Counted from the first letter of the stretch, positions 2,242-37,068 are shown. The stretch is DNA of 64,000 nucleotides from an uncultured archaeon (GCA_964347025.1 CAYFWU010000001.1:26081-90080), one strand, 5' to 3'. The notes: a model not told the origin generated them from the sequence alone. Translations and numbers: made by a program.

Positions 2242-4878
2242 ATGCTTTTTCAGATCTTTGATATAGACTACACCATGGTTGATGACAGGCCTATAGTGAG
2301 GATATTCGGAAAGACCAAAAAAGGCGAAACGGTTTGCGGTTTCTATGAAAATTACCTGCCGTATTTTTATGCAAGAGGTGAAGGGGTCGAGGATGCTGTC
2401 AAGGGAGAAAGTAATATGGTGAAGGTTGAAAGGGTTGAGAGATTTCTTCCCATAGGATATCAGAAACAAACGAGTGAATTGTATAGGATAACACTTAAAA
2501 ACCCAGCGAAGACGCCTGAAATAAGGGACAGGCTGAGATCAAAGGGTTTCGAGGTTTTTGAAGCGGACATACCCTTCAAATACAGATTCATGGCTGATTT
2601 CGATCTGAAGGGTATGGAATGGATTGAGGTTGAAGGTTCGGAAGGTGTGACGACAAACACAGTGAGCACACAGGTTAAAATCCCAATAAAACAATTCAAA
2701 AAAATCGAAATGGATGGTATGGCTCGCTTGAAATTTCTCTGTTTGGATATAGAATGTGTTTCTTTGAAGGAGGGGGAAATGCCCGAGGCAAGAAAGGATC
2801 CTATAATAATGATTTCGCTGGTTTTCAGTGAACCGTACAAGGGCAAAGATTCGCTGGTTATGAGTACGAGATCTGATATTGATGTGAAACCATTCGAGAC
2901 AGAGAAGGAACTGTTGGAGGATCTGATTGGAATAATAATGGATTACGATCCTGACGTCATAACAGGCTTTAACGTAAACAACTTTGACATCCCGTACATA
3001 CTTGAAAGGATGAGGCAGAATGATATACCTCCTATCTTTGGGAGATGTAAAAAACACGTTACCAAGAACCAGATAATGAGCAGGTTCAAAATAAACATAA
3101 CTGGAAGAATAATGGTTGATTCTTTTGAGATAATAAAGAGGGATTTCTCAATGAAACGCTATGATCTGAACACAGTATCAAACGAACTTTTGGGGGAAGG
3201 AAAAGAGAATGTTAAGAGGTCCCAGATAGAGAAGTTCTGGAAGGGCAGTCAGGAAAAGTTCAGAACACTCATAAGGTATTCCAAGAAGGATTCAGAACTT
3301 GCAATGAAACTGGTTTCTAAAATGAATCTGTTGGATAAATACATAGCGCTTGCCAAAATTTCTGGCACGCTTCTCCAGGATATACTCGATTCCGGGGAAA
3401 CGACAAGAATCGAAAACCTGATTCTAAGGGAATTTGACAAAGAGGATTTTGTTCTTCCCTGCAGGCCAGACGGGATGGAGGTTTCCAAGAGGGAGAAGGT
3501 AAGAAAGGTTGAGCTGAAAGGGGGGCATGTGATAGAACCCGAAAAGGGTTTACATTCCTCAGTTATTGTCCTTGACTTTAAATCAATGTACCCTTCTTTG
3601 ATAAGGACGTTCAACATCTGCCCGACAACCCTGCTTGTGAAAGGAGATGTGGAAGGGGCGATATCGTCCCCTTCAGGAGCGAAATTTGTTCCTGAAAGCA
3701 TAAGAAAGGGCATAATACCAAAGATACTGGAGAGGCTGATGGATGAAAGACAAAAGGTCAAAAGGAAAATAAGGAAAGAATCCGCCTCAGGGAAAATCAG
3801 GGAGTTAAAGGCGGAGGAATTCGCCCTTAAAATAATGTCCAACGCCTTTTACGGACACTTCGGGTACCCGCGAGCGAAGGTATACTCAATGGACATCGCA
3901 AGCTCAATAACGGCATTTGGGAGGGAAACAATCAAAAAAACAAAAGAGTTTATTGAGAAGAACTTCGGTTACAAGGTTATTTATGGAGATACCGATTCTG
4001 TCATGGTTGAGGTTCCATATAAGGAACTTGGTGAAACGAAAAAGGCTGGGGAAGAGGTGGCAAAAAGGGTCACATCGGTTTTGAAGGGTGTTATGGAGTT
4101 AGAATTTGAAAAGGTTTTCAAGAGATTTCTTCCACTCACCAAGAAGAGGTACGCTGCGTGGGCATTTGAGTTTAGTGAAGATGGTTGGAAGGAAAGCATG
4201 GAAACGAAGGGTATAGAGACTGTTAGGAGGGACTGGTGTGATCTAACGTCGGAGACTATCGAGAAAGTTCTGGGGATAATCTTGAAGAAGAACGACATCA
4301 AAGAGGCTGTCAGCTATTTTAAGGGCGTGGCAGACAACATGGTTGAAGGCAATATCCCCATACAAAAACTTGTCATAACCAAGACCATGACCAAGCGAGC
4401 GGAAGGTTATGCAGGTATACAGCCGCATGCAGAGCTTGTGAAAAAGATAAAGAAACGTTCACCAGCTGAATGCCCGGGGGTTGGGGATAGGATTGGCTAC
4501 GTCATAGTGAAAGGACCGGAACTTCTTTCTAAAAGATCAGAGGATCCCTTGTATGTTATGGAGAAAAAACTTCCGATAGATTCAAGGTACTACATAGAAA
4601 ACCAACTTCTTCCCCCCCTGGAAAGGATTTTCACTGCATTGGGTATTTCAAAAACAGAGCTGCTGGGAAAGGGTAAACAGGTTAGCCTTTTCACTGCTAT
4701 TGCCAACAATTCTAAGACAAATATTCTGAAAGACATTTCTGATAAAGACGTCAAAGGTTTTATATGTGAAAAGTGTTACAAAACCTATAACATTCCTCCC
4801 CTCAGCGGGGTTTGTCTGTGTGGAGGGAACCTTCTCTTTAATTCTTCCAAAGGGCCCGCAAAACATGTTGTTTACTAG
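2242..4878 (+). CDS. polB: family B DNA polymerase
   Basis: Exo I motif LDIECVS, polymerase motif C YGDTDS, the KxxxNSxYG motif (KIMSNAFYG), and a C-terminal Cys cluster CEKCYK...CLCGG. Length 878 aa. Confidence 0.9.
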   Translation: MLFQIFDIDYTMVDDRPIVRIFGKTKKGETVCGFYENYLPYFYARGEGVEDAVKGESNMVKVERVERFLPIGYQKQTSELYRITLKNPAKTPEIRDRLRSKGFEVFEADIPFKYRFMADFDLKGMEWIEVEGSEGVTTNTVSTQVKIPIKQFKKIEMDGMARLKFLCLDIECVSLKEGEMPEARKDPIIMISLVFSEPYKGKDSLVMSTRSDIDVKPFETEKELLEDLIGIIMDYDPDVITGFNVNNFDIPYILERMRQNDIPPIFGRCKKHVTKNQIMSRFKINITGRIMVDSFEIIKRDFSMKRYDLNTVSNELLGEGKENVKRSQIEKFWKGSQEKFRTLIRYSKKDSELAMKLVSKMNLLDKYIALAKISGTLLQDILDSGETTRIENLILREFDKEDFVLPCRPDGMEVSKREKVRKVELKGGHVIEPEKGLHSSVIVLDFKSMYPSLIRTFNICPTTLLVKGDVEGAISSPSGAKFVPESIRKGIIPKILERLMDERQKVKRKIRKESASGKIRELKAEEFALKIMSNAFYGHFGYPRAKVYSMDIASSITAFGRETIKKTKEFIEKNFGYKVIYGDTDSVMVEVPYKELGETKKAGEEVAKRVTSVLKGVMELEFEKVFKRFLPLTKKRYAAWAFEFSEDGWKESMETKGIETVRRDWCDLTSETIEKVLGIILKKNDIKEAVSYFKGVADNMVEGNIPIQKLVITKTMTKRAEGYAGIQPHAELVKKIKKRSPAECPGVGDRIGYVIVKGPELLSKRSEDPLYVMEKKLPIDSRYYIENQLLPPLERIFTALGISKTELLGKGKQVSLFTAIANNSKTNILKDISDKDVKGFICEKCYKTYNIPPLSGVCLCGGNLLFNSSKGPAKHVVY

Positions 4879-5093
4879 ATAGTGAATTTATATAACTTCA
4901 CTATGAAAGAGTTGATTTAATTTTTGTTTTGAAACCCATGTGAAGTTTGAGCGTGAAACCTTCATTTAAATTATCGTAAATGTCATGTGAAGGAGGGACA
5001 CCTTCATTTCCTGTGGAAAAATTCGATATGCTTAGCTATATACCGGTTTTTCCAGTTTCATGTGAATTCCATGTGAAATTTTTATCGGTGTCT

Positions 5094-6317
5094 CTAGAAG
5101 AAAGTGCTAAGAAAAAACGGATTTGCTCCTGAAAAGTACATGATTGTGGGGAGTATGAGGAACCCCATCAGGTGGGTTCTCTTCACGCCAAGAGAGATTG
5201 CCAGCAGACCTATAAACATTCCTGTCAATGAAATTAACACTCCTAAAATCCCTGTGAACGTGAATACCAGTAAGGACAAGAATGACAGTGTGAAGAGCAT
5301 CATTTTTGTATAGTTTATATCTTTAATCCTTTCGATTATAATGCTGCCCATCTTTATCGTTAATACACCCGATATCAGGCATGTTATAAAGCCGACCACT
5401 ATCACGAATATAATATCAAAGGACGAGATGGAATCCACAATCTGAGAAAGCACCCATACCGCTCCTGATCTTGTCTTCCCAATAACATAGAAGACAATGA
5501 AGGTGAAGAATATGTTTGATGTGTTTATTCCCCCAAGGGCAACAAGGAATTCCCTCAGTTTCGCTCTGAGAAACTGAGCCGCTACTATGCCTGCCTGCGA
5601 AGAACCTATTCCTGGAAGTAAACCCGCAAGCATGCCTGCCAGCCACCCGGCAACACTTCCCTTTAACCAGTTCTCCCTTATTTCTCTGGGTTTCTTCTGG
5701 GGAGGGAGTTTCATCCTTGTTATTACGCTCGTTAGCAGAGTGCTCAGGCCAAAGAGGCCTGTCAAGGCTGGGAAAAGGGTTTGCTCAGAGGGGAAAGAAT
5801 TAAGGGTTAAGAAACCAAAAACCCCAGAAAAGAAAAAAATCGGAGGTGCATATAATTTCTTCTTTCCCTTCTCTGTGAACATCATCCATACGACAATCGA
5901 CAGTAGGATAAGATGTATGAAGGGTTTTATTGTATTGTATATCAAAGGGAGAAAATAAAAGAGAGCGGGAAGGCTTAAAATTGTTAGCATCATTACACCG
6001 ATACCACCCATTACTGTCAGAAAAAGGGCTTCATACCCTTTCCCCTTCAAAAGTAGTCTATGCCCCGGAAGAATAGAAAGGACAGAATCCTCTTCCGGCG
6101 CTCCGAAGAGAATGGTTGGTATAAAATCGAAAAAGGTATTGGATACGGCGAGAGAAATTATAAAGGCAAGCATGCAGTGAAGGGGGAGAGAGGAAAAAAC
6201 GAAGGTCATGGATAAGACCATAATGAAAATTGTGTTTGGATGAAGCCCTGGGATTAGACCCGTAATTAACCCGAAAAACATTCCCAAAAAAATGAAGAAA
6301 ACAACCTCAAAGAACAT
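5094..6317 (-). CDS. TctA/DUF112-family polytopic membrane transporter
   Basis: 407 aa with >10 TM helices and duplicated G-L-x-P-G-x-(G/H) motifs (GLITGLIPGLHP and GLLPGIGSSQAG), as in tripartite tricarboxylate transporter TctA. Confidence 0.5.
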   Translation of the reverse strand: MFFEVVFFIFLGMFFGLITGLIPGLHPNTIFIMVLSMTFVFSSLPLHCMLAFIISLAVSNTFFDFIPTILFGAPEEDSVLSILPGHRLLLKGKGYEALFLTVMGGIGVMMLTILSLPALFYFLPLIYNTIKPFIHLILLSIVVWMMFTEKGKKKLYAPPIFFFSGVFGFLTLNSFPSEQTLFPALTGLFGLSTLLTSVITRMKLPPQKKPREIRENWLKGSVAGWLAGMLAGLLPGIGSSQAGIVAAQFLRAKLREFLVALGGINTSNIFFTFIVFYVIGKTRSGAVWVLSQIVDSISSFDIIFVIVVGFITCLISGVLTIKMGSIIIERIKDINYTKMMLFTLSFLSLLVFTFTGILGVLISLTGMFIGLLAISLGVKRTHLMGFLILPTIMYFSGANPFFLSTFF

Positions 6318-6414: not shown

Positions 6415-7140
6415 ATGGTTGACGAAACCAAGTTGGCGAAGGAGAAGCTTGCAAAGGACATTGTAGGCGAAATTGTTCTCTCTGATAATCCTGAAAAGAT
6501 CCTCAAGAAATGGAGGAGTATATTCAATTTCTCTCAGAAAAAGGTGGCCAAATGTTTAGGTATAACCTCTTCTGTCATATCTGATTACGAATCCGGAAGG
6601 AGAAAGTCTCCAGGAATAAATGTCATAAAGAAGTATGTGAACGCGCTTTTGGACCTTGATCTCAGGAGCGGCGGTAAGGTTATAAAGAGTTTTTCACAGT
6701 CCTTTTTCCAGAGTCCGAAGATATCGGAAGCTGTCATAGATATAAAGGAATTCTCTTCTGGAATTGATATAAATACCTTCTGTAAGAGGATCAGTGCAGA
6801 CATGCTGACAAAGAGTGTTGGTAGAGTTGAAAGGGAGATATATGGTTATACCATTATAGATTCGGTTAAAGCCATATCAGAACTTTCATTTAATCAGCTC
6901 ATTGGTCTTTACGGGACGACAACTCAGCGCGCTCTTCTCTTCACGGGTGTTTCCACCGGGAGAACTCCCATGGTTGCAATAAAACTAACAAACCTGCAAC
7001 CAGGTCTTGTTGTTTTACATGGGATAGAACAGGTCGATGAGGTCGCAAAAAACATAGCCGAAGCAGAGAACATTCCCCTTGCACTGTGCAGACTTGAAGG
7101 AGTTGAGGACGTTGTCTCAAGACTGAAAGAACTTGATTAA
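6415..7140 (+). CDS. XRE-family HTH transcriptional regulator with a C-terminal domain of unknown function
   Basis: The segment FSQKKVAKCLGITSSVISDYESGRRKSP is an HTH_XRE helix-turn-helix. The ~150-aa C-terminal domain is unassigned. Confidence 0.5.
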   Translation: MVDETKLAKEKLAKDIVGEIVLSDNPEKILKKWRSIFNFSQKKVAKCLGITSSVISDYESGRRKSPGINVIKKYVNALLDLDLRSGGKVIKSFSQSFFQSPKISEAVIDIKEFSSGIDINTFCKRISADMLTKSVGRVEREIYGYTIIDSVKAISELSFNQLIGLYGTTTQRALLFTGVSTGRTPMVAIKLTNLQPGLVVLHGIEQVDEVAKNIAEAENIPLALCRLEGVEDVVSRLKELD

Positions 7141-7811
7141 AACTTTTTTATCTCACATTTTACTTCCCTGTCTATTGTCACCATCCCATACAGGCCATTA
7201 AATATGGCGCCGGGGTAGAAAACCGTTGTTTTTCCTATTTTATCTATACCGCCTGCTTCGTGTATGTGAGCAGAAATTGCCAAAACGGGTTTTCTTGTCT
7301 CTATGAAATTTCTTATCACCTTTGAACCTACATGTTCTCCTGTTTCTGTTCTGTCGACCTTTGTCCTGTAAGGGGGGCAGTGTGTTAGCAGTATGCTTTT
7401 TATTTTTGGGTCTATTTTAAGTTTAAGTAGGTTTCCCTTTATTTCCTCCTCTGTTGGCTCAAATTTCGTATTAAAGGGCGTGGAGGCCCCTCCAAAGCCG
7501 AGTATCTCAAATCCCTTGAATTTTCTGGTTTTGGCATGAAGATTTACATCATATTCGTCAAACATTTCTAAAATCTCGTATGGTTCATGATTCCCTGGTA
7601 TGCATAGAACAGGTTTGCCTAAGGATAACATTTTTTGGAGAACAAGCTCTGCAACATCTATCTGCGAGAAACCTTCAGGTGTATTGAACATGTCTGTGAA
7701 ATCCCCAGGACACAAAACCAAGTCGAAATTCTTTTCGTCAAATTTTTTTAAAAATTTTGAAAGCTTCTCAATCTCTCCGTGGACGTCCGCGATAACAAGA
7801 ATTTTTAGCAT
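7137..7811 (-). CDS. calcineurin-like metallophosphoesterase (MJ0936/YfcE-like)
   Basis: All MPE motifs are present: ADVHGE, PGDFTD, GNHE, LTHCPP, SAHIHE. A TATA-like element (tttttaataaa) lies ~27 nt upstream on the minus strand. Confidence 0.75.
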   Translation of the reverse strand: MLKILVIADVHGEIEKLSKFLKKFDEKNFDLVLCPGDFTDMFNTPEGFSQIDVAELVLQKMLSLGKPVLCIPGNHEPYEILEMFDEYDVNLHAKTRKFKGFEILGFGGASTPFNTKFEPTEEEIKGNLLKLKIDPKIKSILLTHCPPYRTKVDRTETGEHVGSKVIRNFIETRKPVLAISAHIHEAGGIDKIGKTTVFYPGAIFNGLYGMVTIDREVKCEIKKF

Positions 7812-7858
7812 ATTAATTCTATGCTGTGTTTATTAAAAAGTGTTGATATATAACAGTG

Positions 7859-8755
7859 TTATATTTTTCCAAACTTCCCCCCGTTAATCTCACTATATTC
7901 AAAAAAACTTTCATGGTCTGTTGATGCCACTACTATTCCCTTGTAGTTCTTACTCCAGTTTTCTTTGTTTTCAATCAACCATATTATGTTCGGTATATTT
8001 TCTATAAGGTAGGGGGTGTATATGCCTGCCTCCTCTCTGTGTGGGAGTTCCCTCCTCTTTAAAAAATTTACGAACTCCTGGTTCCCAATTACGTCCTCTG
8101 GTTTGAAAACAAGAATCAATGTTTCCTTGCCCCCATGCTGTAGCCTTATCCAACGTGGGTTCAGATTTCCGTTTTCTTCGGATTCGAGGTTTATGACCGC
8201 AAATCCTTTTCCTGTTTTCTCCTTCAGTTCTTCGCTTAGCTTTCTTGTAAGCAGAATGTCTGGGATCTTTCCCTTGTCGGTTAGTGGTATGTCAGGCCAA
8301 ATAATTTCATCAGGGAAGAAACCTCCCTCTTTAAACCAGCCTCTTAAGCCAACAATGTCTCCCGGTAAAATGTTTTTGTTGTCCATTACAACTTCTGTTC
8401 CCCCCGTGATGTCCTCTATGACAAACCCGTTTTTTGTTTTTTCTCTTACCCTTCCTATTATTGAAGTTTTCGAGAATATTTTTTTACCCTTGTTTATAGA
8501 AACAGCATCCATTTTCTTTAGTAGAACCCCCTTCAAGATTTCATACTTTTTACCGTAGTAATCCAAAAAATCTTTAACCGTGGCTTCCTTTCTCTTTTTT
8601 TTGTTCTCTGTCTTTATCTTAGGTTTTTCTTTTTTTCCTTCCTTGAGTTCTCTTAAAATATCCTCGTAGTTGTCCTCGTTAATTGTTTCCAAAAGGGTTG
8701 GTGGAACCATAACCCCTTCCTTGAGAAACACCGATATTATCTGCTTTTTGTTCAT
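7859..8755 (-). CDS. OB-fold protein with similarity in pattern to the OB/N-terminal region of PolD small subunit (DP1) and eukaryotic polymerase B-subunits; function unknown
   Basis: The central segment SIIGRVREKTKNGFVIEDITGGTEVVMDNKNILPGDIVGLRGWFKEGGFF...IIWPDIPL resembles the DP1 OB fold followed by the PDxP linker. No intact phosphoesterase motifs follow. Confidence 0.35.
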   Translation of the reverse strand: MNKKQIISVFLKEGVMVPPTLLETINEDNYEDILRELKEGKKEKPKIKTENKKKRKEATVKDFLDYYGKKYEILKGVLLKKMDAVSINKGKKIFSKTSIIGRVREKTKNGFVIEDITGGTEVVMDNKNILPGDIVGLRGWFKEGGFFPDEIIWPDIPLTDKGKIPDILLTRKLSEELKEKTGKGFAVINLESEENGNLNPRWIRLQHGGKETLILVFKPEDVIGNQEFVNFLKRRELPHREEAGIYTPYLIENIPNIIWLIENKENWSKNYKGIVVASTDHESFFEYSEINGGKFGKI

Positions 8756-8777: not shown

Positions 8778-9977
8778 TTAAATAAACTCTTCTTTTAAGA
8801 ATTTTTCAATCTTGTTTATCATCTCGTTTGAAAGGTTAAGCTTTATTTCCCTCGTCCTTCCATACCTTCCTTTGGATATCACACGCGAATTCACGATGCC
8901 GAACATATCAAGCTCAGAGATGAGATCCGAAACCCTTCTCTGTGTTAGTGTCTTCAGGCTGTTTCTGTTGCAGGCCTGGGTATAAACATCAAAAACATCT
9001 CCTGTTTGGATGTTCTTCCTTCCTTTGTGGGTCAGTTCTATTATAGAGAGGAGGACGCATTGGGACTGTCTTGGTTGGGTTTTTGTTATTTCTAGGGTTT
9101 TGTCTGTGTCTAGTTTTTTCTCTGCGAGATCAACATGTTCTTTCAAAACCCGTTCATTTCCCATCCTTTCTGCGACTTCACCAGCAACCCTTAACAGATC
9201 TAATGCCTTCCTTGCGTCTCCGTGTTCCTGCGCAGCCAGGGCAGAACATTTCTCTATTACTCCGGGTGAAACCACTCCAGGGCTGAATGCCATTTGTGCT
9301 CTTTCGTTGAGTATGTCTCTCAGTTCAGAAGCATTGTAGGGAGGGAAAACGGCCTCTTCCTCCGAAAGGGAAGACTTGACCCTAGGATCAACATCATTAA
9401 TAAAAGATATGTTATTTGATATGCCTACTATTGTTATCTTGTTTTTCTCAAGTTCTTGGTTTATCCTTGTTAGGTTGTAGAGTATCCCATCACCAACCTT
9501 TTTAACTAGGGTATCTATCTCATCCAATACCAGCAAAACGTTTTCTTCTCCATCTTTCAATAAGTTAAAGAACTTCTTGTAGAGGCTGTCTGTAGGCAAA
9601 CCTGTATAAGGGACATCAACGCCGAAAAATGATATTAGCTGTGAAAGTAAACGATACTCTGTATCAGACACCCTTCTCATTTTACAGTTTACATAAATCG
9701 TCTTCAACTTCCCGTTGTCCTGATTAAGGTTGAGGTTCTTCACTATATGGCTCATACATAAGGATTTCCCAGTGCCTGTTTTCCCATAAATAAAAACGTT
9801 TGAGGGTTTCTCGCTTCTTAACAGAGGAGCAAGGATCAGACCAAGTTGTTTTATCTGTTCTTCCCTATGAGGTATGTTCTCTGGTGTAAAGGCTATTGAT
9901 AGCGTGTTTTTGTCTTTGAACACCCCTCTCTTTCCTCCATAACCCCCAAATATATCATTCAAAGAAATTTGAGCCAT
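8778..9977 (-). CDS. cdc6: Orc1/Cdc6 replication initiator
   Basis: FTPENIPHREEQIKQL precedes the Walker A motif GKTGTGKS. Walker B is VLVLDEID. A C-terminal winged helix is present. Length 399 aa. Confidence 0.9.
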   Translation of the reverse strand: MAQISLNDIFGGYGGKRGVFKDKNTLSIAFTPENIPHREEQIKQLGLILAPLLRSEKPSNVFIYGKTGTGKSLCMSHIVKNLNLNQDNGKLKTIYVNCKMRRVSDTEYRLLSQLISFFGVDVPYTGLPTDSLYKKFFNLLKDGEENVLLVLDEIDTLVKKVGDGILYNLTRINQELEKNKITIVGISNNISFINDVDPRVKSSLSEEEAVFPPYNASELRDILNERAQMAFSPGVVSPGVIEKCSALAAQEHGDARKALDLLRVAGEVAERMGNERVLKEHVDLAEKKLDTDKTLEITKTQPRQSQCVLLSIIELTHKGRKNIQTGDVFDVYTQACNRNSLKTLTQRRVSDLISELDMFGIVNSRVISKGRYGRTREIKLNLSNEMINKIEKFLKEEFI

Positions 9978-9982
9978 ATTAT

Positions 9983-10154
9983 TTCCATATGAAATAAGGG
10001 TTTAAATTCTTTTCTTTTCTTGAGTTAATACAACCCCAACATTTCTTATGGAAAGCCTACTTAAATTTCCACTGGAAACAGTATTACAGTGTTATATTAT
10101 AACTAATAAACATATTTTTCTTTGGCTTTCCACTTCCACAAGAAACAGGGGTGG
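9983..10154. other. probable chromosomal replication origin (oriC): four ORB-like elements around an AT-rich unwinding stretch
   Basis: The four elements are ttccatatgaaataagggtt (9983-10002, +), ttccataagaaatgttggggttg (inverted, plus-strand 10031-10057), ttccactggaaac (10067-10079), and ttccacttccacaagaaacaggggtgg (10128-10154). They match the archaeal ORB core TCCAnnGGAAA plus a G-string. The AT-rich stretch is 10080-10127, and the locus lies immediately upstream of cdc6. Confidence 0.6.
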
Positions 10155-10157
10155 TAT

Positions 10158-15321: not shown

Positions 15322-16278
15322 ATGAGACGGGTTTTGTCCTTGATGCTGTTGATGCCCATGTTAATGGTCTCAGGTTGTGTAATACCAGGAACAGACTTTA
15401 GGATACCAATAATTTCTGATCTCTTTGGTCCGCCCATTGAGGAATTCAGGCACGATGTCGTTTTCATACAAAGTTTGCAGGCAATACCTTCACACACCAT
15501 AAGATCCGGTCAGGCCCTAACCTTACGGGCTTACGTACAAAACCTTCAGAAACCAGAGAGCGACCCACAGAATGACGTGGAAATCGAATTGTACGATGAT
15601 TGTGGGATATTTGATGTCAGAAAGAGCATATGCACAGGCGGGACTTTCCAAGGAGAAACGAAATGCAAAATTACGAAGATGTATCCGCAGTCCACAGCGA
15701 TAGTTGACTGGAAGATGACGGCAAAGCCAATGAAGATAAAAACACCCTGCGATGTCGGGGTTCTCGTGAAGTATACTTACACAACTCATACCACATCTTC
15801 GGCAAGCTTTGTTAATCAGGAGGAACTGGAAAACCTGATAGCACAGGGTAAACAGTTCAGCGAAAAGGGAATGATAGTTGTTGGTGAGGGCCCTGTCAAA
15901 TCATACATAGAGGTTCCGGACCAGCCGATAATGGTGGACATCAGGGGAGGCGATGGAACAGGAAAGGGCATGATGACGTTCTGGGTAGAAAACAAGGGAA
16001 AGGGAGAACTCGAGGGCAACAAAATAATCAAGGATAACATAGACATAGAGTGCGGAGACCAGGTGACTGGTTGCGAAAACTGCGAGAAAAAGATAGACGA
16101 AGATGGCCTGCAGCTCATCGGAAGAAGCTCTCCAAAATTCTCATGTGAAATAGAACCAAGAAACAAAGGATTTATAACACAGGAGAAAACATATCAACTA
16201 ACCTCGAAAATAACCTATTCTTACAAATTCACCAAAAAGATCAAACTGACGATAGAACCAGAGATCAAATTGGATTGA
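15322..16278 (+). CDS. secreted lipoprotein, paralog 1 of a four-gene tandem family (two beta-sandwich CARDB-like domains)
   Basis: Signal peptide plus lipobox MVSGC. Shares the family C-terminal block KITYSYKF...LTIEP and the central THTTSSASFVNQEELENLI block with paralogs 2-4. Confidence 0.5.
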   Translation: MRRVLSLMLLMPMLMVSGCVIPGTDFRIPIISDLFGPPIEEFRHDVVFIQSLQAIPSHTIRSGQALTLRAYVQNLQKPESDPQNDVEIELYDDCGIFDVRKSICTGGTFQGETKCKITKMYPQSTAIVDWKMTAKPMKIKTPCDVGVLVKYTYTTHTTSSASFVNQEELENLIAQGKQFSEKGMIVVGEGPVKSYIEVPDQPIMVDIRGGDGTGKGMMTFWVENKGKGELEGNKIIKDNIDIECGDQVTGCENCEKKIDEDGLQLIGRSSPKFSCEIEPRNKGFITQEKTYQLTSKITYSYKFTKKIKLTIEPEIKLD

Positions 16279-16328
16279 ATATTGAGAGCAAATTAAGTTT
16301 ATAAGCGTAACTGGTCAAATATTTAAAG

Positions 16329-17300
16329 ATGAAGAGAACAGCTTTCGGAAAGAACGCGAAGTTCTTTTTGCTGTTATTTATTGCTGCAGGTCTAACTGTG
16401 ATTTCTGGTTGTACACTGCCCGGTATAGGGCCGAGTACAGGGGGAGGACAGGGAGTTGCTGTTGACATCTTTCAGCCAACACTTGGACAGACAACACCCA
16501 TAGAATCAGACGAACCAGTGAGTTTCCATTTGGAGGTTATTAACAGAGGAGACTACAACAACGCTCCAGCAGTTGCGGAACTTACAGGAATAGACACGAC
16601 AGAATGGAACGTATTCGGAGATGTTTACAGGGACCTTGGCCTTTTGCTTGCCCCGGATCCAGAGTCGCAGACTGAGGGGGGAAGAGGAAGAGCTGACTGG
16701 GATGCAATAACACCGACACTTGCCAGAAACCAGAAGATGACTTACGAACCTATCGCAAGGGTTTACTATTACTATGAAACACACGTAACAAAACCCGTAT
16801 GGTTTGTGACATCAGAAGAACTGAGAAGGGTCGTACAGGGAGCAGGAACCCTAGACAGCGAAACGACAACACCATGGAACGGACCGTTAACAGCCACGGT
16901 TGACACAGGAAATTTCGTTAAGGCAAGGGACTGGAGAGAATCAAAATTCCAGCTCCAGATCAGGATAGATAACACCGGTGGAGGACAGATATTTGGAAGG
17001 GATTATCCAGTTGCCGTTGAGGTAATATGGCCAGATGGTGTTATACCAGTTGGTGATTGCCCGAGACAGATCCAGTTCGGATCAGGGATTTATGAAAACT
17101 TGCCACCATTCCTGTCAACACCTGCATTCGGAAGGTTTGTCAGGGTTTGGAATGGTCAGTACACAGACATAACATGTGAATTCCAGGTGACAAATCCACC
17201 AACAAACAAGGTTAAGAAAAACTTTGAGGTAAAGCTTGGCTACATATACTACGTGGATGCAGCAAGTCATATAACAGTTAAAGGGTTCGAGGAATTCTAG
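16329..17300 (+). CDS. secreted lipoprotein, paralog 2 of the tandem family
   Basis: Lipobox VISGC. Motifs VINRGD (CARDB-like N-x-G), LLAPDPESQTEGG, YYYYETHVTKPVWFVTSEELRRV, IDNTGGG, and KLGYIYYVDAASHITVKGF. Confidence 0.5.
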   Translation: MKRTAFGKNAKFFLLLFIAAGLTVISGCTLPGIGPSTGGGQGVAVDIFQPTLGQTTPIESDEPVSFHLEVINRGDYNNAPAVAELTGIDTTEWNVFGDVYRDLGLLLAPDPESQTEGGRGRADWDAITPTLARNQKMTYEPIARVYYYYETHVTKPVWFVTSEELRRVVQGAGTLDSETTTPWNGPLTATVDTGNFVKARDWRESKFQLQIRIDNTGGGQIFGRDYPVAVEVIWPDGVIPVGDCPRQIQFGSGIYENLPPFLSTPAFGRFVRVWNGQYTDITCEFQVTNPPTNKVKKNFEVKLGYIYYVDAASHITVKGFEEF

Positions 17301-17351
17301 GGGTTTCCATTCATTACCTCTTTTTATTTATTTTTAGACAATTATATAACT

Positions 17352-18335
17352 ATGAATAGCCAAAAAATTATAGTTTCATTTTTTGTTTTGTTCTCTTTAA
17401 TCCTGGCCTCAGGATGCGTAATGCCTGGCTTACCATTTAATTCTCAGACACCAGTAGGAACAGGTATCGTGATTGAAAGCTTCAGGACAGACCCAGAATT
17501 GAGCGAGGTATATTCTAACGAGGAGATAAAGTTTATTCTAAAGTTTAGGAACACAGGGACGGTAAAAGTAGAGAACTGTTATGCAGAGGTTCTTGGTTTG
17601 GACCAGATGTGGAAGGGAAAAGATGATGCAAGGAAAAACCCTAGTAATCAGGAGGTTTTCCCGTATGAGAGGGAGTGCCAGTATGACCAGAGAGGAAGCT
17701 GGATAGTCCTGTTACCGCCAGATCCATCAACCGGAATAGAAGGTGGGGATCACATATGCACATGGGGCTACATAGCTCCGGATGTCCCTCCAGGTATCCA
17801 CGCTGATTACAAACCGAGGGCTCGCGTTTTCTATGATTACAAAACACATGTTGTGAAAACAATAACCCTTGTCCCACAGGACGAGTTAAGGGTGATCCAG
17901 AACCAGGGGAAGAGCCTTCCTGTAGAAACAACCAGCGAATCTGGGTCCCCGATATCCCTGGATATTGAGACCAGAAGTCCCATAAGAACCTATGGGAAGA
18001 GTATGACGTTCCCTATGGTCATCAAGGTAGAAAACATTGGAGGAGGAACGGTCTGCTCAAACAGTGAAAATTGCAGGAAATATGCCGAAGGGGGTGCTCT
18101 ATGGAACCAATTCAGACTAACCATAGAACTTCCCGATGGCATGGGTTTTGAACAGGGGAGCTGTACCGGAAACGAGGATGTCTATTTGGTCATGGGAAAG
18201 TCGCAGACGATTTCCTGTAAGGTTCAGGTTCACACCATACCAGAAAGGCTGATACAGAAGAACATAAGACTTACAGCTGAATATGGTTACTTTATAGACA
18301 AGACCATCGAAATAAGGGTTCTCCCAAGCGGATAA
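17352..18335 (+). CDS. secreted lipoprotein, paralog 3 of the tandem family
   Basis: Lipobox LASGC. Motifs FRNTGT, LLPPDPSTGIEGG, FYDYKTHVVKTITLVPQDELRVIQNQGKSLP, VENIGGG, and TAEYGYFIDKTIEIRV. Confidence 0.5.
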   Translation: MNSQKIIVSFFVLFSLILASGCVMPGLPFNSQTPVGTGIVIESFRTDPELSEVYSNEEIKFILKFRNTGTVKVENCYAEVLGLDQMWKGKDDARKNPSNQEVFPYERECQYDQRGSWIVLLPPDPSTGIEGGDHICTWGYIAPDVPPGIHADYKPRARVFYDYKTHVVKTITLVPQDELRVIQNQGKSLPVETTSESGSPISLDIETRSPIRTYGKSMTFPMVIKVENIGGGTVCSNSENCRKYAEGGALWNQFRLTIELPDGMGFEQGSCTGNEDVYLVMGKSQTISCKVQVHTIPERLIQKNIRLTAEYGYFIDKTIEIRVLPSG

Positions 18336-18366
18336 AGATAAAAGCATCGTATTTCAATATAAAATT

Positions 18367-19293
18367 ATGGCAAGGACAATTCAGTCACTTTTGCTAATTT
18401 TTTGTTTGATTTTGGTATCAGGATGTATAGGCCAACAGACATCTTCTGGCGATGGGCTGGTCATAGAGAATTTTGTATCCAACCCGTCTGAAATATATTC
18501 CGGAGAATCGTTTCAACTTCAGCTGATGGTGAGAAACACAGGCATCTCCGATGCAAAAAACGTTAGATTTGAGCTTTCCAACATAGGAACCACCTATGGA
18601 AGCAGAGGGCTTGAAATATCCTGTGAACCAGAATGTTTGGATGTAATACAAAGCTTACTCGCCCCAGACCCCCAGGCAGGAACCACAGGAGAATCAAGAA
18701 CATGCATATGGAATTGCTTCGCCCCCCAAGACGTCCCTAGAAACGCGAAACTTACGTTTAACCCCAACCTGAGGATATACTATGACTATGAGAATACGAT
18801 CGTCAAGTCCGTCACAATAGTATCAGAGGACGAATTGAGATCAATACAGTCACAGGGGATACCACTCCCAAGCGAGGTTGTTAGCCCATCAGGAGGCCCG
18901 GTAACACTGAGCATACAGATGAGGAGCCCTGTTAAGTATATAGAAAACTCAAATACAGTAACCTTCCCGATAGCCATAACAATTGAAAATGTTGGTGGCG
19001 GTGTGGCTTGTCATCCGAGTTGTAGTGACCCGAAAAACTGGAACAAGGTATTTTTAGGTCTGGGCCCGGAATCTGGAATGAACCTGAAAGACTGTGAAAT
19101 AGTGATGTACAACGAAATTGATTTATGGGAAGGTCGGAGCAGAACAATTGTTTGTGACGGAGAGCTGTCCCTGTTTTCTGAGATGAGCGGCAGGAGGACG
19201 GGGATCAACCTGCTGCAAAAAACCTTAGAGATAAAGGCAAGCTATGAATACTTTGTAGACACTTCAACTTCTATAACGGTGACAGGGTTCTAA
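18367..19293 (+). CDS. secreted lipoprotein, paralog 4 of the tandem family
   Basis: Lipobox LVSGC. Motifs VRNTGI, LLAPDPQAGTTGE, YYDYENTIVKSVTIVSEDELRSIQSQGIPLP, IENVGGG, and KASYEYFVDTSTSITVTGF. Confidence 0.5.
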   Translation: MARTIQSLLLIFCLILVSGCIGQQTSSGDGLVIENFVSNPSEIYSGESFQLQLMVRNTGISDAKNVRFELSNIGTTYGSRGLEISCEPECLDVIQSLLAPDPQAGTTGESRTCIWNCFAPQDVPRNAKLTFNPNLRIYYDYENTIVKSVTIVSEDELRSIQSQGIPLPSEVVSPSGGPVTLSIQMRSPVKYIENSNTVTFPIAITIENVGGGVACHPSCSDPKNWNKVFLGLGPESGMNLKDCEIVMYNEIDLWEGRSRTIVCDGELSLFSEMSGRRTGINLLQKTLEIKASYEYFVDTSTSITVTGF

Positions 19294-30721: not shown

Positions 30722-31173
30722 CAAAGAACAGAATTATAACAATCGAGAAACTCAGAGAGCTTTTAGATGACCTTAGTGATAAACTTTTGATAGTTGAAGG
30801 CAAGAACGATAAAAAAGCTTTAAAAAGCCTAGGATTGAAAAATATTATTGCCATCGATGGCAGACCACTTTACGAGGTGGTTGAAAACATAGAAACAGAT
30901 AAGGAGATTGTAATACTTACAGACTTCGATAAAAAGGGCAGGGAGATCGGAAAACGACTGAAATACCTGCTCCAGAAACATAAAAAAAGAATAAACTCAA
31001 AATTGAGAGGTAAGACAATGTCTTTAGGAAAAAATCAAATAGAAGATTTGGCAAATTTGAATAGCCAAATCGCTTTTAAGGAGGTTGATATTCATGTCAA
31101 AACTCGCGCCAACATCAATAAAATATCTGATAAAGGCACAAATAAACGCAAAAGGGGTAATAGAGAAACCTGA
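30718..31173 (+). CDS. small Toprim-domain protein (COG1658/RNase M5-like)
   Basis: LLIVEGKNDKKALKSLG...AIDG...ILTDFDKKGREIG contains the Toprim E and DxD motifs. A 4-nt overlap with the upstream CBS gene. Its 3' end overlaps the DnaG start region. Confidence 0.55.
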   Translation: MTKNRIITIEKLRELLDDLSDKLLIVEGKNDKKALKSLGLKNIIAIDGRPLYEVVENIETDKEIVILTDFDKKGREIGKRLKYLLQKHKKRINSKLRGKTMSLGKNQIEDLANLNSQIAFKEVDIHVKTRANINKISDKGTNKRKRGNRET

Positions 31174-32278
31174 TGTAATAGGAGCTATTTTTGGGCAGAC
31201 AGAAGGTTTGCTTGGACCAGATCTGGATTTAAGGGAACTGCAGAGAACGGGAAGGATAGGAAGGATTGAGGTCAACATAAAATCAGAAAAGGGTAACTCT
31301 TACGGTGAACTAATAATACCTTCATCCTTGGATTCAACAGAAACAGCTTTGATAGCAGCAACATTGGAGACGATAGAAAGGGTGGGACCATGCATAGCAA
31401 AAATCACGCTGAAATCAGTTGAGGACACAAGGGAGATGAAGAGGAAATTCGTGGTTGACAAGGCAAAGATAATCCTGAAGGATTTGTTAGAGAAAGGTTT
31501 GCCCGATACCACAAAGATAACAGAGGACATAAAGGAGGAGATAAAGACACACGAGATAACGAGCTACAAAGGACTGCCATGCGGACCAAATCTACTCGAT
31601 TCTGATGAGATAATAATTGTGGAAGGACGAGCAGACGTAGTGAATCTTATAAGGTATGGAATAAAAAATGCCATAGCAATAGAAGGCAGTTCAATTCCAC
31701 AAACTATAATAGATATCTCGAAGGAGAAGATAACCACGGCTTTCTTGGACGGAGACAGAGGTGGGGACTTGAATCTGAAGGGCCTCATTGAAACAACGGA
31801 TCTGGATTACATAGCTGTCGCCCCGCCTGGCAAAGAGGTAGAGGAACTATCTAAAAAAGAGGTTTTTAAGTGCCTTAGGGATAAGATATCATCTTCCCAG
31901 TTTAAACTCGAAAAAACCAACAACTTAAAAAGGGAAGAAAAAAGGCCAATGGTTGTGAAGAGGGAATACACAAAACCCATGATAAGAATTACAGAGGATC
32001 AGAAGAAGGTATTCAAGAAAACCTTGGAAGAGCTGATAGGGACGAGAGCTGCCTGTATTTTTGATTCGAGTTTCAATCTGCTAGGTAAGGTTCCCGTGAA
32101 GGAATTGATAAATACTTTGAAGACCGTAGAAAATCCTTATGCGGTTATATTCGACGGCAGGATTGACTACAAACTGGAATCAATTGCGAAGAGAAAAGAC
32201 ATAAAGTTTCTCGTGGGCATGGAAAAGGAAAACATTAGATCCTCTGTGGGTATACTTTCCAAAGAGGACCTTAAGTAA
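31085..32278 (+). CDS. dnaG: archaeal DnaG-like primase (Toprim; exosome-associated). The likely true start is at Met 31094 (MSKLAP...).
   Basis: N-terminal SIKYLIKAQINAKGVIEKPDVIGAIFGQTEGLLGPDLDLRELQRTGRIGRI is the archaeal DnaG signature. A Toprim motif is present (IIIVEGRADV, 31615-31644). Confidence 0.8.
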   Translation: MIFMSKLAPTSIKYLIKAQINAKGVIEKPDVIGAIFGQTEGLLGPDLDLRELQRTGRIGRIEVNIKSEKGNSYGELIIPSSLDSTETALIAATLETIERVGPCIAKITLKSVEDTREMKRKFVVDKAKIILKDLLEKGLPDTTKITEDIKEEIKTHEITSYKGLPCGPNLLDSDEIIIVEGRADVVNLIRYGIKNAIAIEGSSIPQTIIDISKEKITTAFLDGDRGGDLNLKGLIETTDLDYIAVAPPGKEVEELSKKEVFKCLRDKISSSQFKLEKTNNLKREEKRPMVVKREYTKPMIRITEDQKKVFKKTLEELIGTRAACIFDSSFNLLGKVPVKELINTLKTVENPYAVIFDGRIDYKLESIAKRKDIKFLVGMEKENIRSSVGILSKEDLK

Positions 32279-33746: not shown

Positions 33747-34295
33747 TCAATTTCCTCCCAGCTTAAAAACTGCTAAATCAGTATATACAGGCCCATTTCT
33801 GGTAAGGACACTGCTTTTTAACTTCACGTCTTTCACGGCCATTTCACCTATCTTCACATCTTTATGTTTATTTATGAAATCCAAAAGTAGGTCCCTGTTC
33901 CTTCCCGATTTGACCCGTCCTATGGTTAAGTGTGGCGATTTATTTTTTTCACCGATATTTAAGCAATCATTCATATTCTTCACCAACTTCACAAAATCAT
34001 CTTTACCTTCATCCACATCCAGCCATAAAGTTTTTATATGTTTCGGGCTTCCAAAATAACATAGTCCCTGTATGTTTATTTTGAAAACATAATTTCCCCT
34101 CAGGCCCCTTTCAACAGATTTTTTAATCACATCAACTTCATCCTCTTCAACTTCCCCAAGAAACTTTAGCGTGAAATGAAGATTTTCAGGCTCCACCAGC
34201 TTGATATCCAAATTCATACTAATTATCTCATTCTGGATCTCCTTTACTTGCTTTGCAAGATCCTTGTTCAAATCAACCGCCAAAAAACACCGCAT
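33747..34295 (-). CDS. thpR: RNA 2',3'-cyclic phosphodiesterase / 2'-5' RNA ligase (2H family)
   Basis: Two H-x-T/S-x motifs (HFTLKFLG and HLTIGR). Length 182 aa. Confidence 0.75.
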   Translation of the reverse strand: MRCFLAVDLNKDLAKQVKEIQNEIISMNLDIKLVEPENLHFTLKFLGEVEEDEVDVIKKSVERGLRGNYVFKINIQGLCYFGSPKHIKTLWLDVDEGKDDFVKLVKNMNDCLNIGEKNKSPHLTIGRVKSGRNRDLLLDFINKHKDVKIGEMAVKDVKLKSSVLTRNGPVYTDLAVFKLGGN

Positions 34296-34376
34296 AAAAA
34301 TTTATTGTTAAATTTATATATAAATTTCATCCACCTTCACTAAATATTTAAATATTTTAGCCAAATATATGAAATT

Positions 34377-35453
34377 ATGAACTTGGATATGAACTTAAGT
34401 GAAAAATATGTGAAGTTGTTCAGTTGGAGTGAAAATCCATTCAGCTTTAAGATACTACCTAACCTATTTGTAGGTTATATGAAAGAAACAGAGAACATTT
34501 TAGACAATATAAGAAGCATGGACAAGTTCTCTCTCCTACTCGGACCTACGGGTTCTGGTAAAACAACCCTCCTTAAGTTTATAGCAGACAAATTTGATGG
34601 TAAAAGCATTTTCTACTTATCGAAACCGCCAAAAAATCCAGAAGACTGGGTAAATATATTCACGAACTTCATAGGATTTGGAATAATGGAGAGGCTCTTT
34701 TCAAGAAGAAAGAATCTCAACTTGTATAACCTTAGTGAATGGGTAAACAAAAAAACACAAAGAAGGAAAATTGTCCTACTCTTGGATGAAGGACATGAGG
34801 CCACAATAGAAACGCTTGAATGGCTGAGAACCCTGACAGATCAGATAGATAATCTATCAATCGTGATAGCAGGTTTGCCCACCCTCGAACAGATTCTGAG
34901 AGAAAATCTTGAAACCTTCATAAGGAGGGTAAGTACGAAGGTGGAGCTAACGAATCTCACAAAATCGGAAACAAGAGAACTTATTAAAAAAAGAATAGAA
35001 TGGGTTGGCGGTAATGATATAAAACCTTTCACTTCTGAAACCATACAGGTTATACACGAAAAGACAGGGGGGTTCCCCAGAGAGGTAATAAAACTGTGCA
35101 ACGATTTTGTTCAAAAAGCGACCGAAAGAAACATATCTACAATAGACCCCAATTTCCTGGAAGAAATCAGAACGGAAGCACCCAGAAGGGTTTCATTGGG
35201 GAGCATAAACAACCTACCATCTCGTCAGAAGCTTATTTTGGAACTATTGAATAAAAACAAAGATATAACACCATCAGAAGTGGTCTCAAACATCGAACTG
35301 GATGGATACCGGGATAAGGAAAATGCAATAAGATCGGTTAACAATATACTTAAGAGACTCTTGAAGGACGGTTTGGTAACGAGAAGGAGAGCAGGCAAGA
35401 CATTCCAATACAAACTTTCAGATAAAGTAAAAACAATGATGGTTAATGCGTAA
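34377..35453 (+). CDS. AAA+ ATPase of the Orc1/Cdc6-ExeA-like clade with a C-terminal winged helix
   Basis: Walker A LLLGPTGSGKTTL, Walker B VLLLDEGHE, a sensor-1-like IVIAGLPT, and a C-terminal wHTH (...LLKDGLVTRRRAGKTFQYKLS). Confidence 0.5.
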   Translation: MNLDMNLSEKYVKLFSWSENPFSFKILPNLFVGYMKETENILDNIRSMDKFSLLLGPTGSGKTTLLKFIADKFDGKSIFYLSKPPKNPEDWVNIFTNFIGFGIMERLFSRRKNLNLYNLSEWVNKKTQRRKIVLLLDEGHEATIETLEWLRTLTDQIDNLSIVIAGLPTLEQILRENLETFIRRVSTKVELTNLTKSETRELIKKRIEWVGGNDIKPFTSETIQVIHEKTGGFPREVIKLCNDFVQKATERNISTIDPNFLEEIRTEAPRRVSLGSINNLPSRQKLILELLNKNKDITPSEVVSNIELDGYRDKENAIRSVNNILKRLLKDGLVTRRRAGKTFQYKLSDKVKTMMVNA

Positions 35454-35833: not shown

Positions 35834-36136
35834 ATGAGAGAGAAAGGATACTATCGAAATACAATAAAAAACGTTATGCAGATACTAAATTTACTGAAAA
35901 AATACGAAAAAACAGGGGAATTGCTAACGATATCTAAAATATCAAAATTAACAGGCATGCATAAATGGACAGTGTCCAGAACCCTGGATCTCTATATGCA
36001 GAATTTTGTTGAAATAACTATCCCAGATGGTTTTGAAGATGTCGGTTTACATATAAAATTCGTAAGATTAAAGAGACCTGACATAACAAAAGAACAGGTT
36101 TTACGCCTACTTAAACTGCGAAGTCTCACTTTTTAA
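35834..36136 (+). CDS. small winged-helix DNA-binding protein
   Basis: 100 aa. [21 protein letters not shown] is a plausible HTH. No further assignment. Confidence 0.3.
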
Positions 36137-37068
36137 TCCCTCACACCCTCTGTTATTACCCTGAACACAGCCTCTCCTTCTGGCATGTTCGGTGAGTCTA
36201 TCAGCTTCGCTATCCTTTTATCTCCTTTGGATTTCCTGAGATAAACACGGAACGTCGCCTGATGCCCTAATATGTGACCTCCTATGGGGGCAGTCGGGTC
36301 CCCGAAAAGAACATCCGGCCTTGCCATAACCTGATTTGTTACGTATATGGCCACGTTGTAGACATCGGCTAACCTTTGTAGTTTATGCAGGTGTCTGTTC
36401 AGTTTTTGCTGACGGTCGGCCAGAGTTCCTCTTCCCGTGTAATCCGAACGGAAAGATGACGTTACAGAATCAACTATCAAAAGTTTAATATCCTCTTTCT
36501 TTAGTATCTCCTCTGCTTTCTCGGCCAAGAGGACTTGATGATCTGAATTGTAAGCCCTTGCAACAAAGACGTTTTCCATAGTTTTCTTGGGATCAAGACC
36601 CAAGGATTCTGCCATTTGCTGGATTCTTTCAGGTCTGAATGTTTGCTCGGTGTCTATGAAGAGCGCCTTACCTCCCATGCCACCTTTTTCCTTCGGGAGC
36701 TGGACCGTTACAGCCAGCTGATGTGCCAACTGAGATTTCCCTGAACCATATGCACCATGCATCTCTGTTATTGCCTGCGTTTCGATTCCTCCACCAAGCA
36801 GGTCATCCAGTGCTTTGGAACCGGTTGTTATTTTACCAACTTGTTCCCTCTTTTTTAAAACATCGCCTGCTGACTCGAAACCCATTTCCAGCTTTTGCCT
36901 CGCTCCAGCTATTATCTTGTTTGCACTTTCAACACCCAGTCCAGTAGCGGCTGACAGTTCCCCGGCCGAGGCAGCAGCTATACTCATAATATTATCATAA
37001 CCAGATTCCTTTAACTTTTCCAAAGTTTTATCTCCAACCCCAGGCAAACCAGTCAGATCCTTTGACAT
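36133..37068 (-). CDS. radA: RadA recombinase
   Basis: N-terminal HhH ([15 protein letters not shown]), Walker [10 protein letters not shown], and a 311-aa length. Confidence 0.9.

Follow-up and report, generated by a model that had tools for sequence, protein, structure and literature searches.

The window that we analysed is a stretch of 64 kb of DNA from an uncultured archaeon. Within it, an orc1/cdc6 initiator gene is separated from an aminotransferase gene by a short gap that is a candidate replication origin. The genes on which the analysis draws, and the gap itself, are the following.

2242-4878, plus strand: polB, one of the two genes that converge on the polB/TctA gap
5094-6317, minus strand: TctA-family transporter gene, which converges on polB
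7859-8755, minus strand: gene for a DP1-like OB protein, immediately following cdc6 on its downstream side
8778-9977, minus strand: orc1/cdc6 initiator gene, encoding 399 amino acids with Pfam Cdc6_C, Cdc6_lid and AAA domains
9978-10157: origin-candidate gap of 180 bp, between the cdc6 start codon and the aminotransferase stop codon
10158-11333, minus strand: class I/II aminotransferase gene, whose stop codon borders the gap
36133-37068: radA
37108-38148: rpa

The gap and gene coordinates given in a first-pass annotation of this DNA all check out, and annotation confirmed the neighbours that it had named, namely polB, rpa, radA and the DP1-like OB protein. The loci most similar to the window are from Aenigmatarchaeota MAGs, and an identical Cdc6 protein is annotated at NCBI as Candidatus Aenigmarchaeota. 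We take the window to be chromosomal because it contains aminoacyl-tRNA synthetase genes, the gene for ribosomal protein L10 and the SRP RNA. The conserved gene order runs aminotransferase, cdc6, DP1-like, metallophosphoesterase, HTH, TctA and polB; genes for the metallophosphoesterase and for an XRE-type HTH protein accompany cdc6 in the nearest Aenigmatarchaeota loci, even where the order is rearranged. The DP1-like protein matched the PolD small subunit family NF003118 (1.6e-16, residues 42-161) and the structure 6knb_A (4e-4, residues 33-165), and its tblastn matches (25-67% identity) lie on the downstream side of cdc6 in most matching loci. The idea that the metallophosphoesterase supplies a PDE half missing from a split DP1 was rejected on present evidence, as the protein has no match to a DP1 family.

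The initiator itself scores 420 bits against profile TIGR02928 and 484 bits against NF001625. Its nearest solved structures are 2qby_A (S. solfataricus Orc1-1, 2e-111) and 2v1u_A (A. pernix ORC1, 1e-99), both of which were crystallised on ORB DNA. By alignment, the protein keeps the Gly-Leu of the initiator-specific motif (ISM) as well as an Arg in the helix-turn-helix and another in the wing; the ISM Gly-Leu and the DNA-contacting Arg residues matter for origin binding (PMC3089459). Judged by its sequence, this is an initiator of the Orc1-1 clade, whose members bind ORBs. No second cdc6 was found by tblastn within the 64-kb window. A protein with AAA_22/ATPase_2 domains (34377-35453) was tried as a second initiator marking a second origin and was rejected: its match to orc1/cdc6 is weak (1e-4), and there are no ORB matches nearby.

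The first-pass annotation had described four elements in the gap with the archaeal origin-recognition-box (ORB) core TCCAnnGGAAA. Four elements are indeed present, and that core is exact for only one of them, box C; the form common to all four is TTCCA-N3-GAAA. The boxes are listed below with their scores on a 22-nt weight matrix, which was built from 214 core instances taken only from 80 other genomes and has the consensus tTTCCAnAgGAAAtnAAGGTGT.

9982-10003 (core 9983-9994), plus strand: ORB A (TTTCCATATGAAATAAGGGTTT), followed by GGGTT; matrix score 24.8; nearly invariant in 12 relatives
10033-10054 (core 10042-10053), minus strand: ORB B (TTTCCATAAGAAATGTTGGGGT), followed by GGGGTTG, with the G-string at 10034-10037; matrix score 27.2; kept in all relatives
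10057-10078, minus strand: mini-ORB C, containing a 13-bp perfect palindrome (TTTCCACTGGAAA) at 10066-10078, without a G-string; matrix score 19.5 on the minus strand and 14.5 on the plus strand
10133-10154 (core 10134-10145), plus strand: ORB D (CTTCCACAAGAAACAGGGGTGG), followed by GGGGTGG, with the G-string at 10148-10154; matrix score 20.8

The three G-strings reported earlier (GGGTT, GGGGTTG and GGGGTGG) are thus those of boxes A, B and D. The core of box C is that of the P. furiosus ORB and mini-ORB oligonucleotides (PMC1904270), and box D is conserved in relatives as a distal box of opposite polarity.

We found eight matches to TTCCA-N3-GAAA in the window, against 1.9 expected, and none of 100 shuffled sequences reached eight. 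Five of the eight, belonging to the four elements, fall inside the 180-bp gap, where about 0.005 would be expected; the Poisson probability of this cluster is approximately 4e-14, or approximately 1e-11 after correction for 355 windows. The weight matrix gave the same picture: the boxes of the gap score 19.5-27.2, compared with a mean null maximum of 14.6 in Markov-shuffled sequence. Scores above 16 occur at three places in the window, which are this gap, the polB/TctA gap and coding position 39165, and the last of these (16.3) is at chance level. Frequent occurrence of the motif at other loci would have told against an origin here; the other strong matches are instead confined to one further intergenic gap. 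The matrix also recognised, in the same register, P. furiosus ORB1 and ORB3 (16.2 and 16.8), which are bound by purified Cdc6 in vitro, and gave -9.3 for mutated ORB1 and -14.8 for the control (PMC1904270).

We extended the comparison to 80 loci with cdc6 orthologues, mostly from DPANN archaea. The core occurs at 4.6 per kb in the gaps upstream of cdc6, at 0.39 per kb in other intergenic DNA and at 0.18 per kb in coding DNA. Upstream of cdc6 it is thus enriched 12-25x, the lower figure being that against other intergenic DNA, and within 600 nt upstream of cdc6 its density is 23x that found elsewhere. A chance origin for the motif cluster could appeal to the AT-richness of intergenic DNA and to other gaps that are equally unstable. 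Given the empty tail of the shuffles, the corrected cluster probability, the 12x density relative to other intergenic DNA across the 80 loci and the conservation of the boxes position by position, we regard such an explanation as having practically no chance of being right.

The boxes are arranged around an AT-rich spacer that contains a further element, a palindrome with a second copy elsewhere in the window.

10079-10132, no strand: AT-rich spacer, a candidate duplex-unwinding element (DUE), 76-79% AT
10082-10096, no strand: 15-bp palindrome (TATTACAGTGTTATA) matching the pattern TATWACANTGTWATA, inside the AT-rich spacer
7849-7863, no strand: the palindrome again (TATAACAGTGTTATA), in a copy that overlaps the DP1-like stop codon and lies 9 nt upstream of the metallophosphoesterase TATA box

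The AT-rich stretch noted at first pass, 10080-10127, is 79% AT. Boxes B and C, on the minus strand, and box D, on the plus strand, face each other over a spacer of 54-79 bp, and all three have their dyads proximal and their G-strings, where present, distal to 10079-10132, giving the order ORB(-)/DUE/ORB(+). In characterised archaeal origins, the winged-helix domain reads the dyad of an ORB and the AAA+ ISM its asymmetric G-rich element (PMC6742236; PMC12141716), and the ORBs that flank a DUE have opposite polarity, with the winged-helix/lid sides inward and MCM loaded between them (PMC6742236; Ori-Finder-Arch preprint; PMC12141716).

This layout is kept in 12 Aenigmatarchaeota relatives whose Cdc6 identity to the window's protein is 56-94%. 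Read in the orientation of cdc6, the common order is a distal (-) ORB, the AT-rich spacer, a variable mini-ORB, a strong (+) ORB, the block GAATTTAAACCC, a (-) ORB and the ATG. When 16 relatives were tested for the order ORB(-)/DUE/ORB(+), nine had it; six of the others have no above-threshold match on one side, and one has no anchoring palindrome. The equivalent spacer measures 53-117 bp in 11 relatives and is 65-85% AT. Identity over the whole gap is no guide here: both ORB gaps of the window are no better conserved than ordinary promoter gaps. We dropped whole intergenic identity as a footprint, and the informative signal is conservation at the level of blocks only.

Two further measures did not discriminate an origin. 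The spacer is unstable as a helix (z = 3.3 at 30 bp), as are ordinary promoter gaps to a similar degree; when the 30-bp segments of the window are ranked from the least stable upwards it comes 7th, so that AT-richness does not by itself set it apart, and we put helix stability aside as a discriminator. The window's least stable AT tract adjoins the AAA_22/ATPase_2 gene at 34377-35453. Raw cumulative GC skew tracks the coding strand in the 64-kb window and is uninformative at such a scale. A model of skew at fourfold-degenerate sites with a term for fork direction, fitted over the 64 kb, placed no switch at either 10 kb or 5 kb: the null had a weighted error of 75.5, which a switch at 10 kb lowered to 73.0 and the best switch point, 27 kb, to 70.3, so that the fit is barely better anywhere. 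We set GC skew aside as uninformative at 64 kb and did not count it against the origin.

The gap also holds what appears to be the promoter of the initiator gene.

10001-10014, minus strand: putative cdc6 promoter, with the TATA box TTTAAA at 10001-10006 and a purine-rich BRE-like tract

The promoter block GAATTTAAACCC is largely invariant in alignments of the relatives, and the cdc6 promoter accounts for part of the conservation of the gap. The centre of the TATA box lies 26.5 nt upstream of the ATG, and this spacing suggests that the cdc6 mRNA is leaderless. Box A takes up the stretch from the TATA box to the ATG, a position that suggests autoregulation of cdc6: to judge from this placement, Cdc6 bound at box A would probably block transcription of its own gene.

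These observations raise the question of whether the gap serves transcriptional control only, the boxes being operators of cdc6 and the palindrome a transcription-factor site, with replication starting elsewhere or by recombination. The placement of box A and the largely invariant promoter block agree with such a role, as does the recurrence of the palindrome at the metallophosphoesterase promoter. In locus L007, moreover, the single palindrome of the origin region and the start of the metallophosphoesterase gene are about 65 nt apart. Replication that does not depend on an origin is known in the Thermococcales, where some Thermococcus species keep intact cdc6/ORB origins and yet can dispense with Cdc6 (PMC5663688, PMC11005403). 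Because origins and Cdc6 are dispensable in some of these species, the presence of an origin in our window does not prove its use. Boxes B/C and D, however, are set back 55-175 nt upstream from the promoter and inverted around an AT-rich spacer, an arrangement that MCM loading needs and an operator does not. ORBs of the same type also occur in a convergent gap that has no promoter, and ORB clusters beside Orc1-1 orthologues mark oriC1 in every experimentally studied archaeon (PMC4010727, PMC12141716). On balance, we consider a purely transcriptional role for the gap very unlikely.

The palindrome is itself a rare and well-placed element. Its pattern, TATWACANTGTWATA, has two matches in the window against 0.05 expected. 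Among the Aenigmatarchaeota loci that have a match, the pattern lies upstream of cdc6 in 18 of 18, and it does so in none of 70 other loci. In eight loci, counted as those whose nearest (+) match is the equivalent of box B, the palindrome is no more than 6 bp from the midpoint of the distal (-) ORB and the strong (+) ORB. The copy at 7849-7863 is kept in five related loci (L006, L081, L084, L085 and L088) and is degenerate in two (L086 and L087). Xer/dif sites have a 6-bp spacer; the palindrome, with its 7-1-7 geometry, lacks one, and we rejected it as an Xer/dif site. In Sulfolobus oriC1, the element ucm is essential and lies midway between ORB2 and ORB3, and its binding protein occupies many intergenic sites (PMC12141716). 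The palindrome resembles ucm in its position in the middle of the spacer and in having an extra genomic copy, a likeness that is positional only.

The second intergenic gap with strong matrix matches lies between polB and the TctA-family gene.

4879-5093, no strand: second ORB cluster, in the 215-bp convergent polB/TctA gap, 5 kb from the cdc6 gap
4998-5019, minus strand: ORB E (TTTCCACAGGAAATGAAGGTGT), matrix score 32.0, the best in the window and a perfect match to the 214-instance consensus
5056-5078, plus strand: two tandem mini-ORBs (TTTCATGTGAA and TTCCATGTGAAA), of polarity opposite to E, with an exact core at 5067-5078

This gap contains four copies of CATGTGAA, and its density of GTGAA/TTCAC is the highest of all 215-bp windows (7, against 0.62 expected). 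ORB E is identical in L081 and L084, whose Cdc6 identities are 94% and 86%, and is present with a score of 24.8 in L086 (77% identity); in L087 (69% identity), E is replaced by three ORB-like matches of mixed polarity in the same gap. The mini-ORB block TTTCACATGGAATTCACATGAAA hardly varies among L081, L084 and L086. Since the gap is convergent, a promoter cannot explain this conservation. A structured RNA was considered and rejected: there is no Rfam match, and the alignment fold is weak (-11.3 kcal/mol, with a covariation term of +5.0, which is a penalty). Mini-ORBs within the DP1-like gene (7859-8755), as in Pyrococcus, were likewise looked for and rejected, the gene having no exact core and one match with a single mismatch. 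Loci from Woesearchaeota, Pacearchaeota and Nanoarchaeota have a strong satellite ORB 1.7-2.9 kb upstream of cdc6.

The strength of this cluster raises a second alternative, in which the working origin is bipartite or lies at 4879-5093, with initiation occurring at the polB/TctA gap or requiring it, possibly by Cdc6-mediated looping with the cdc6-proximal cluster. In keeping with this alternative, the window's best ORB is there, its conservation is not explicable by a promoter, the boxes form a (-)ORB/spacer/(+)mini-ORB arrangement, and ORB matches are kept in relatives down to 69% Cdc6 identity; the satellite ORBs of the three other groups fit as well. The nearest precedent comes from Pyrococcus: there, Cdc6 binds in vivo both to an ORB cluster in oriC and to another in dp1, on either side of cdc6 (PMC1904270). 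Set against these points, E is separated from the mini-ORBs by a spacer of only about 37-47 bp with an AT content of about 64%, the gap's least stable segment has a low rank (z = 2.3), and a single box has a full G-string. In addition, the closed genome of L088 lacks the TctA-polB adjacency, yet keeps the cdc6-proximal cluster. We consider unwinding more likely at the cdc6-proximal cluster because the E/mini-ORB spacer is short and only moderately AT-rich, and we think it unlikely that the working origin is bipartite or sited in the polB/TctA gap.

Our analysis favours the region 9978-10157 as a probable Orc1/Cdc6-dependent chromosomal origin of the oriC1 type in an archaeon of the Aenigmatarchaeota (DPANN). 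The first-pass annotation had read the gap as a classic oriC-cdc6 arrangement, a reading to which the polarity of the boxes, the Orc1-1 clade of the initiator and a layout kept in 12 relatives lend support at the level of sequence. By homology with the Sulfolobus, Aeropyrum and Pyrococcus systems, we infer how binding, unwinding, firing and autoregulation might proceed at such an origin, and what roles the palindrome and the satellite cluster might have. Cdc6 monomers would bind each ORB in a fixed polarity, the TTCCA-N3-GAAA dyad being contacted by the winged-helix domain and the G-string by the AAA+ initiator-specific motif. With B/C and D in opposite polarity and their dyads inward, two initiators would face each other across the spacer 10079-10132, where they would recruit MCM and give rise to bidirectional replication. 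Through box A, Cdc6 most likely represses its own gene, whose transcript would be leaderless. The mid-spacer palindrome is probably bound by an accessory factor, as its relative position is that of ucm in Sulfolobus oriC1, and Cdc6 probably binds at the satellite cluster (4879-5093) as well, as it does at the Pyrococcus dp1 cluster.

A more elaborate version of this model, which we put forward tentatively and hold to be possible although on the doubtful side, is that of a composite, regulated origin. In this version, the factor that recognises TATWACANTGTWATA, for which the XRE-type HTH protein (encoded at 6415-7140) is a candidate, would couple the origin to transcription of the metallophosphoesterase gene, and Cdc6 bound at the satellite cluster would cooperate with the cdc6-proximal cluster, either by looping or as a second site of MCM loading. 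If this were so, the palindrome factor would be a functional analogue of the crenarchaeal ucm/UBP system, and satellite ORBs a few kb from cdc6 would be a general, unrecognised feature of origins of the oriC1 type, seen in Thermococcales, Aenigmatarchaeota and Woesearchaeota/Pacearchaeota.

The basic finding, a probable origin of an ordinary and well-known kind, will not surprise a specialist; it places a probable replication origin for an uncultured and little-studied DPANN lineage. It may serve as an anchor for estimating growth rates from metagenome read depth, and the lineage ORB consensus tTTCCAnAgGAAAtnAAGGTGT can be used for origin prediction. The extras worth following are the palindrome and the satellite cluster, which are leads on accessory factors and secondary initiator sites in archaeal origins.

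Origins of Aenigmatarchaeota are not named in the literature that we searched, nor in the text of the Ori-Finder-Arch preprint. Unlike the predictions of Ori-Finder 2, Ori-Finder-Arch and DoriC, our analysis yields a lineage consensus, a palindrome and a satellite cluster, none of which is described in the Ori-Finder-Arch text.

Several characterised origins nevertheless invite comparison. Like oriC1 of haloarchaea, the gap combines a mini-ORB core with a G-string and has inverted repeats around a DUE beside cdc6; it differs in lacking the extended halophile-specific G-string and in being a much shorter intergenic region (180 bp). The resemblance to the oriC of Pyrococcus and other Thermococcales extends to the order of oriC, cdc6 and dp1 or dp1-like gene, to a nearly identical core, TTCCAGTGGAAAT(G)AA, to the presence of both full ORBs and 13-bp mini-ORBs, and to two ORB clusters within about 5 kb that flank cdc6. 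Unlike in Pyrococcus, the second cluster here lies 2.8 kb beyond the dp1-like gene and not within it, and the DP1-like protein has the OB part only; measured from the first base of the core, the G-rich element (GGTGT/GGGG) begins at a distance of about 16 nt here and of about 21 nt in Pyrococcus.

Sulfolobus (Saccharolobus) oriC1 likewise adjoins orc1-1 and has inverted dyad-plus-G-string ORBs around an AT-rich spacer. Sulfolobus oriC1 is bound by Orc1-1, and the initiator in our window is most similar to Sso Orc1-1. The units are also of comparable size, at 122 bp here (10033-10154, from the G-string of B to that of D) and 130 bp for ORB3-DUE-ORB2 of S. islandicus. Unlike the Sulfolobus origin, the gap has four boxes, one of which lies over the cdc6 transcription start, and a satellite cluster 5 kb away; its central element is the 15-bp palindrome, compared with ucm by position and not by sequence. 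The probable origin described here shows that the ancestral oriC1 module, comprising Orc1-1, dyad-plus-G-string ORBs, the ORB(-)/DUE/ORB(+) order and the linkage of cdc6 to dp1, survived genome reduction in this lineage.

In the gap between the convergent polB and TctA genes, we found a second cluster of ORBs (origin recognition boxes, bound by Orc1/Cdc6) at 4879-5093. Four copies of the repeat CATGTGAA belong to this cluster, and the gap contains the following elements:

4937-4965, inverted repeat TGAAGTTT-N8-AAACTTCA, as written in the orientation of cdc6
4998-5019, the top-scoring ORB of the window
5056-5078, tandem mini-ORBs (ORB cores lacking a full G-string)

The cluster is kept among relatives whose Cdc6 identity is as low as 69%. 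The inverted repeat is likewise conserved, being retained in five relatives, and could serve either as a protein-binding site or as a bidirectional terminator.

A 15-bp palindrome, TATWACANTGTWATA, occurs just twice in the window: at 10082-10096, near the center of the origin spacer (the AT-rich candidate duplex-unwinding element between ORBs of opposite polarity), and at 7849-7863, immediately upstream of the TATA box of a metallophosphoesterase gene. We found the origin copy in every one of the 18 matching Aenigmatarchaeota loci. The genes on the downstream side of cdc6 are:

7859-8755, DP1-like protein of 298 amino acids, directly downstream of cdc6
7137-7811, calcineurin-like metallophosphoesterase of 224 amino acids, a separate gene after the DP1-like gene
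6415-7140, XRE-type HTH protein of 241 amino acids

The DP1-like protein matches DP1, the small subunit of PolD, only over the OB part, and the 224-amino-acid metallophosphoesterase has no DP1 family match. In most matching loci, the DP1-like tblastn match falls on the cdc6-downstream side. The HTH protein, whose C-terminal ~160 amino acids are uncharacterized, is a candidate for binding the palindrome. Wherever its gene is retained, it lies at most about 3 kb from cdc6 and beside the metallophosphoesterase gene; this proximity of the three genes survives rearrangement of gene order, and in three of the comparison loci (L004, L005 and L007) the HTH gene lies upstream of cdc6.

Replication and repair genes are abundant in the window, and three of them lie 21-28 kb from the origin:

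31085-32278, archaeal DnaG primase (NF003108, 1e-137)
36133-37068, RadA (Rad51 family, 1e-97)
37108-38148, RPA-like OB protein

The least stable tract of the window, an AT-rich stretch at 34294-34393, precedes the gene for a 358-amino-acid AAA_22/ATPase_2 P-loop protein (within 34294-35453), the C-terminal part of which weakly matches the orc1/cdc6 family (TIGR02928, 1e-4). No ORB matches were found near 34294-35453. Separately, four paralogous genes encoding proteins of 308-327 amino acids stand in tandem at 15322-19293, and their location is conserved among relatives (L081, L084, L086 and L087); the one paralogue checked had no Pfam match.

Among other DPANN archaea, many of the Woesearchaeota, Pacearchaeota and Nanoarchaeota loci (L022-L072) have one very strong, minus-oriented ORB (matrix score 27-32) that lies 1.7-2.9 kb upstream of cdc6. 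This satellite ORB is separated by about one gene from the main, cdc6-proximal cluster, which in these loci often includes two plus-oriented ORBs spaced ~98 bp apart.
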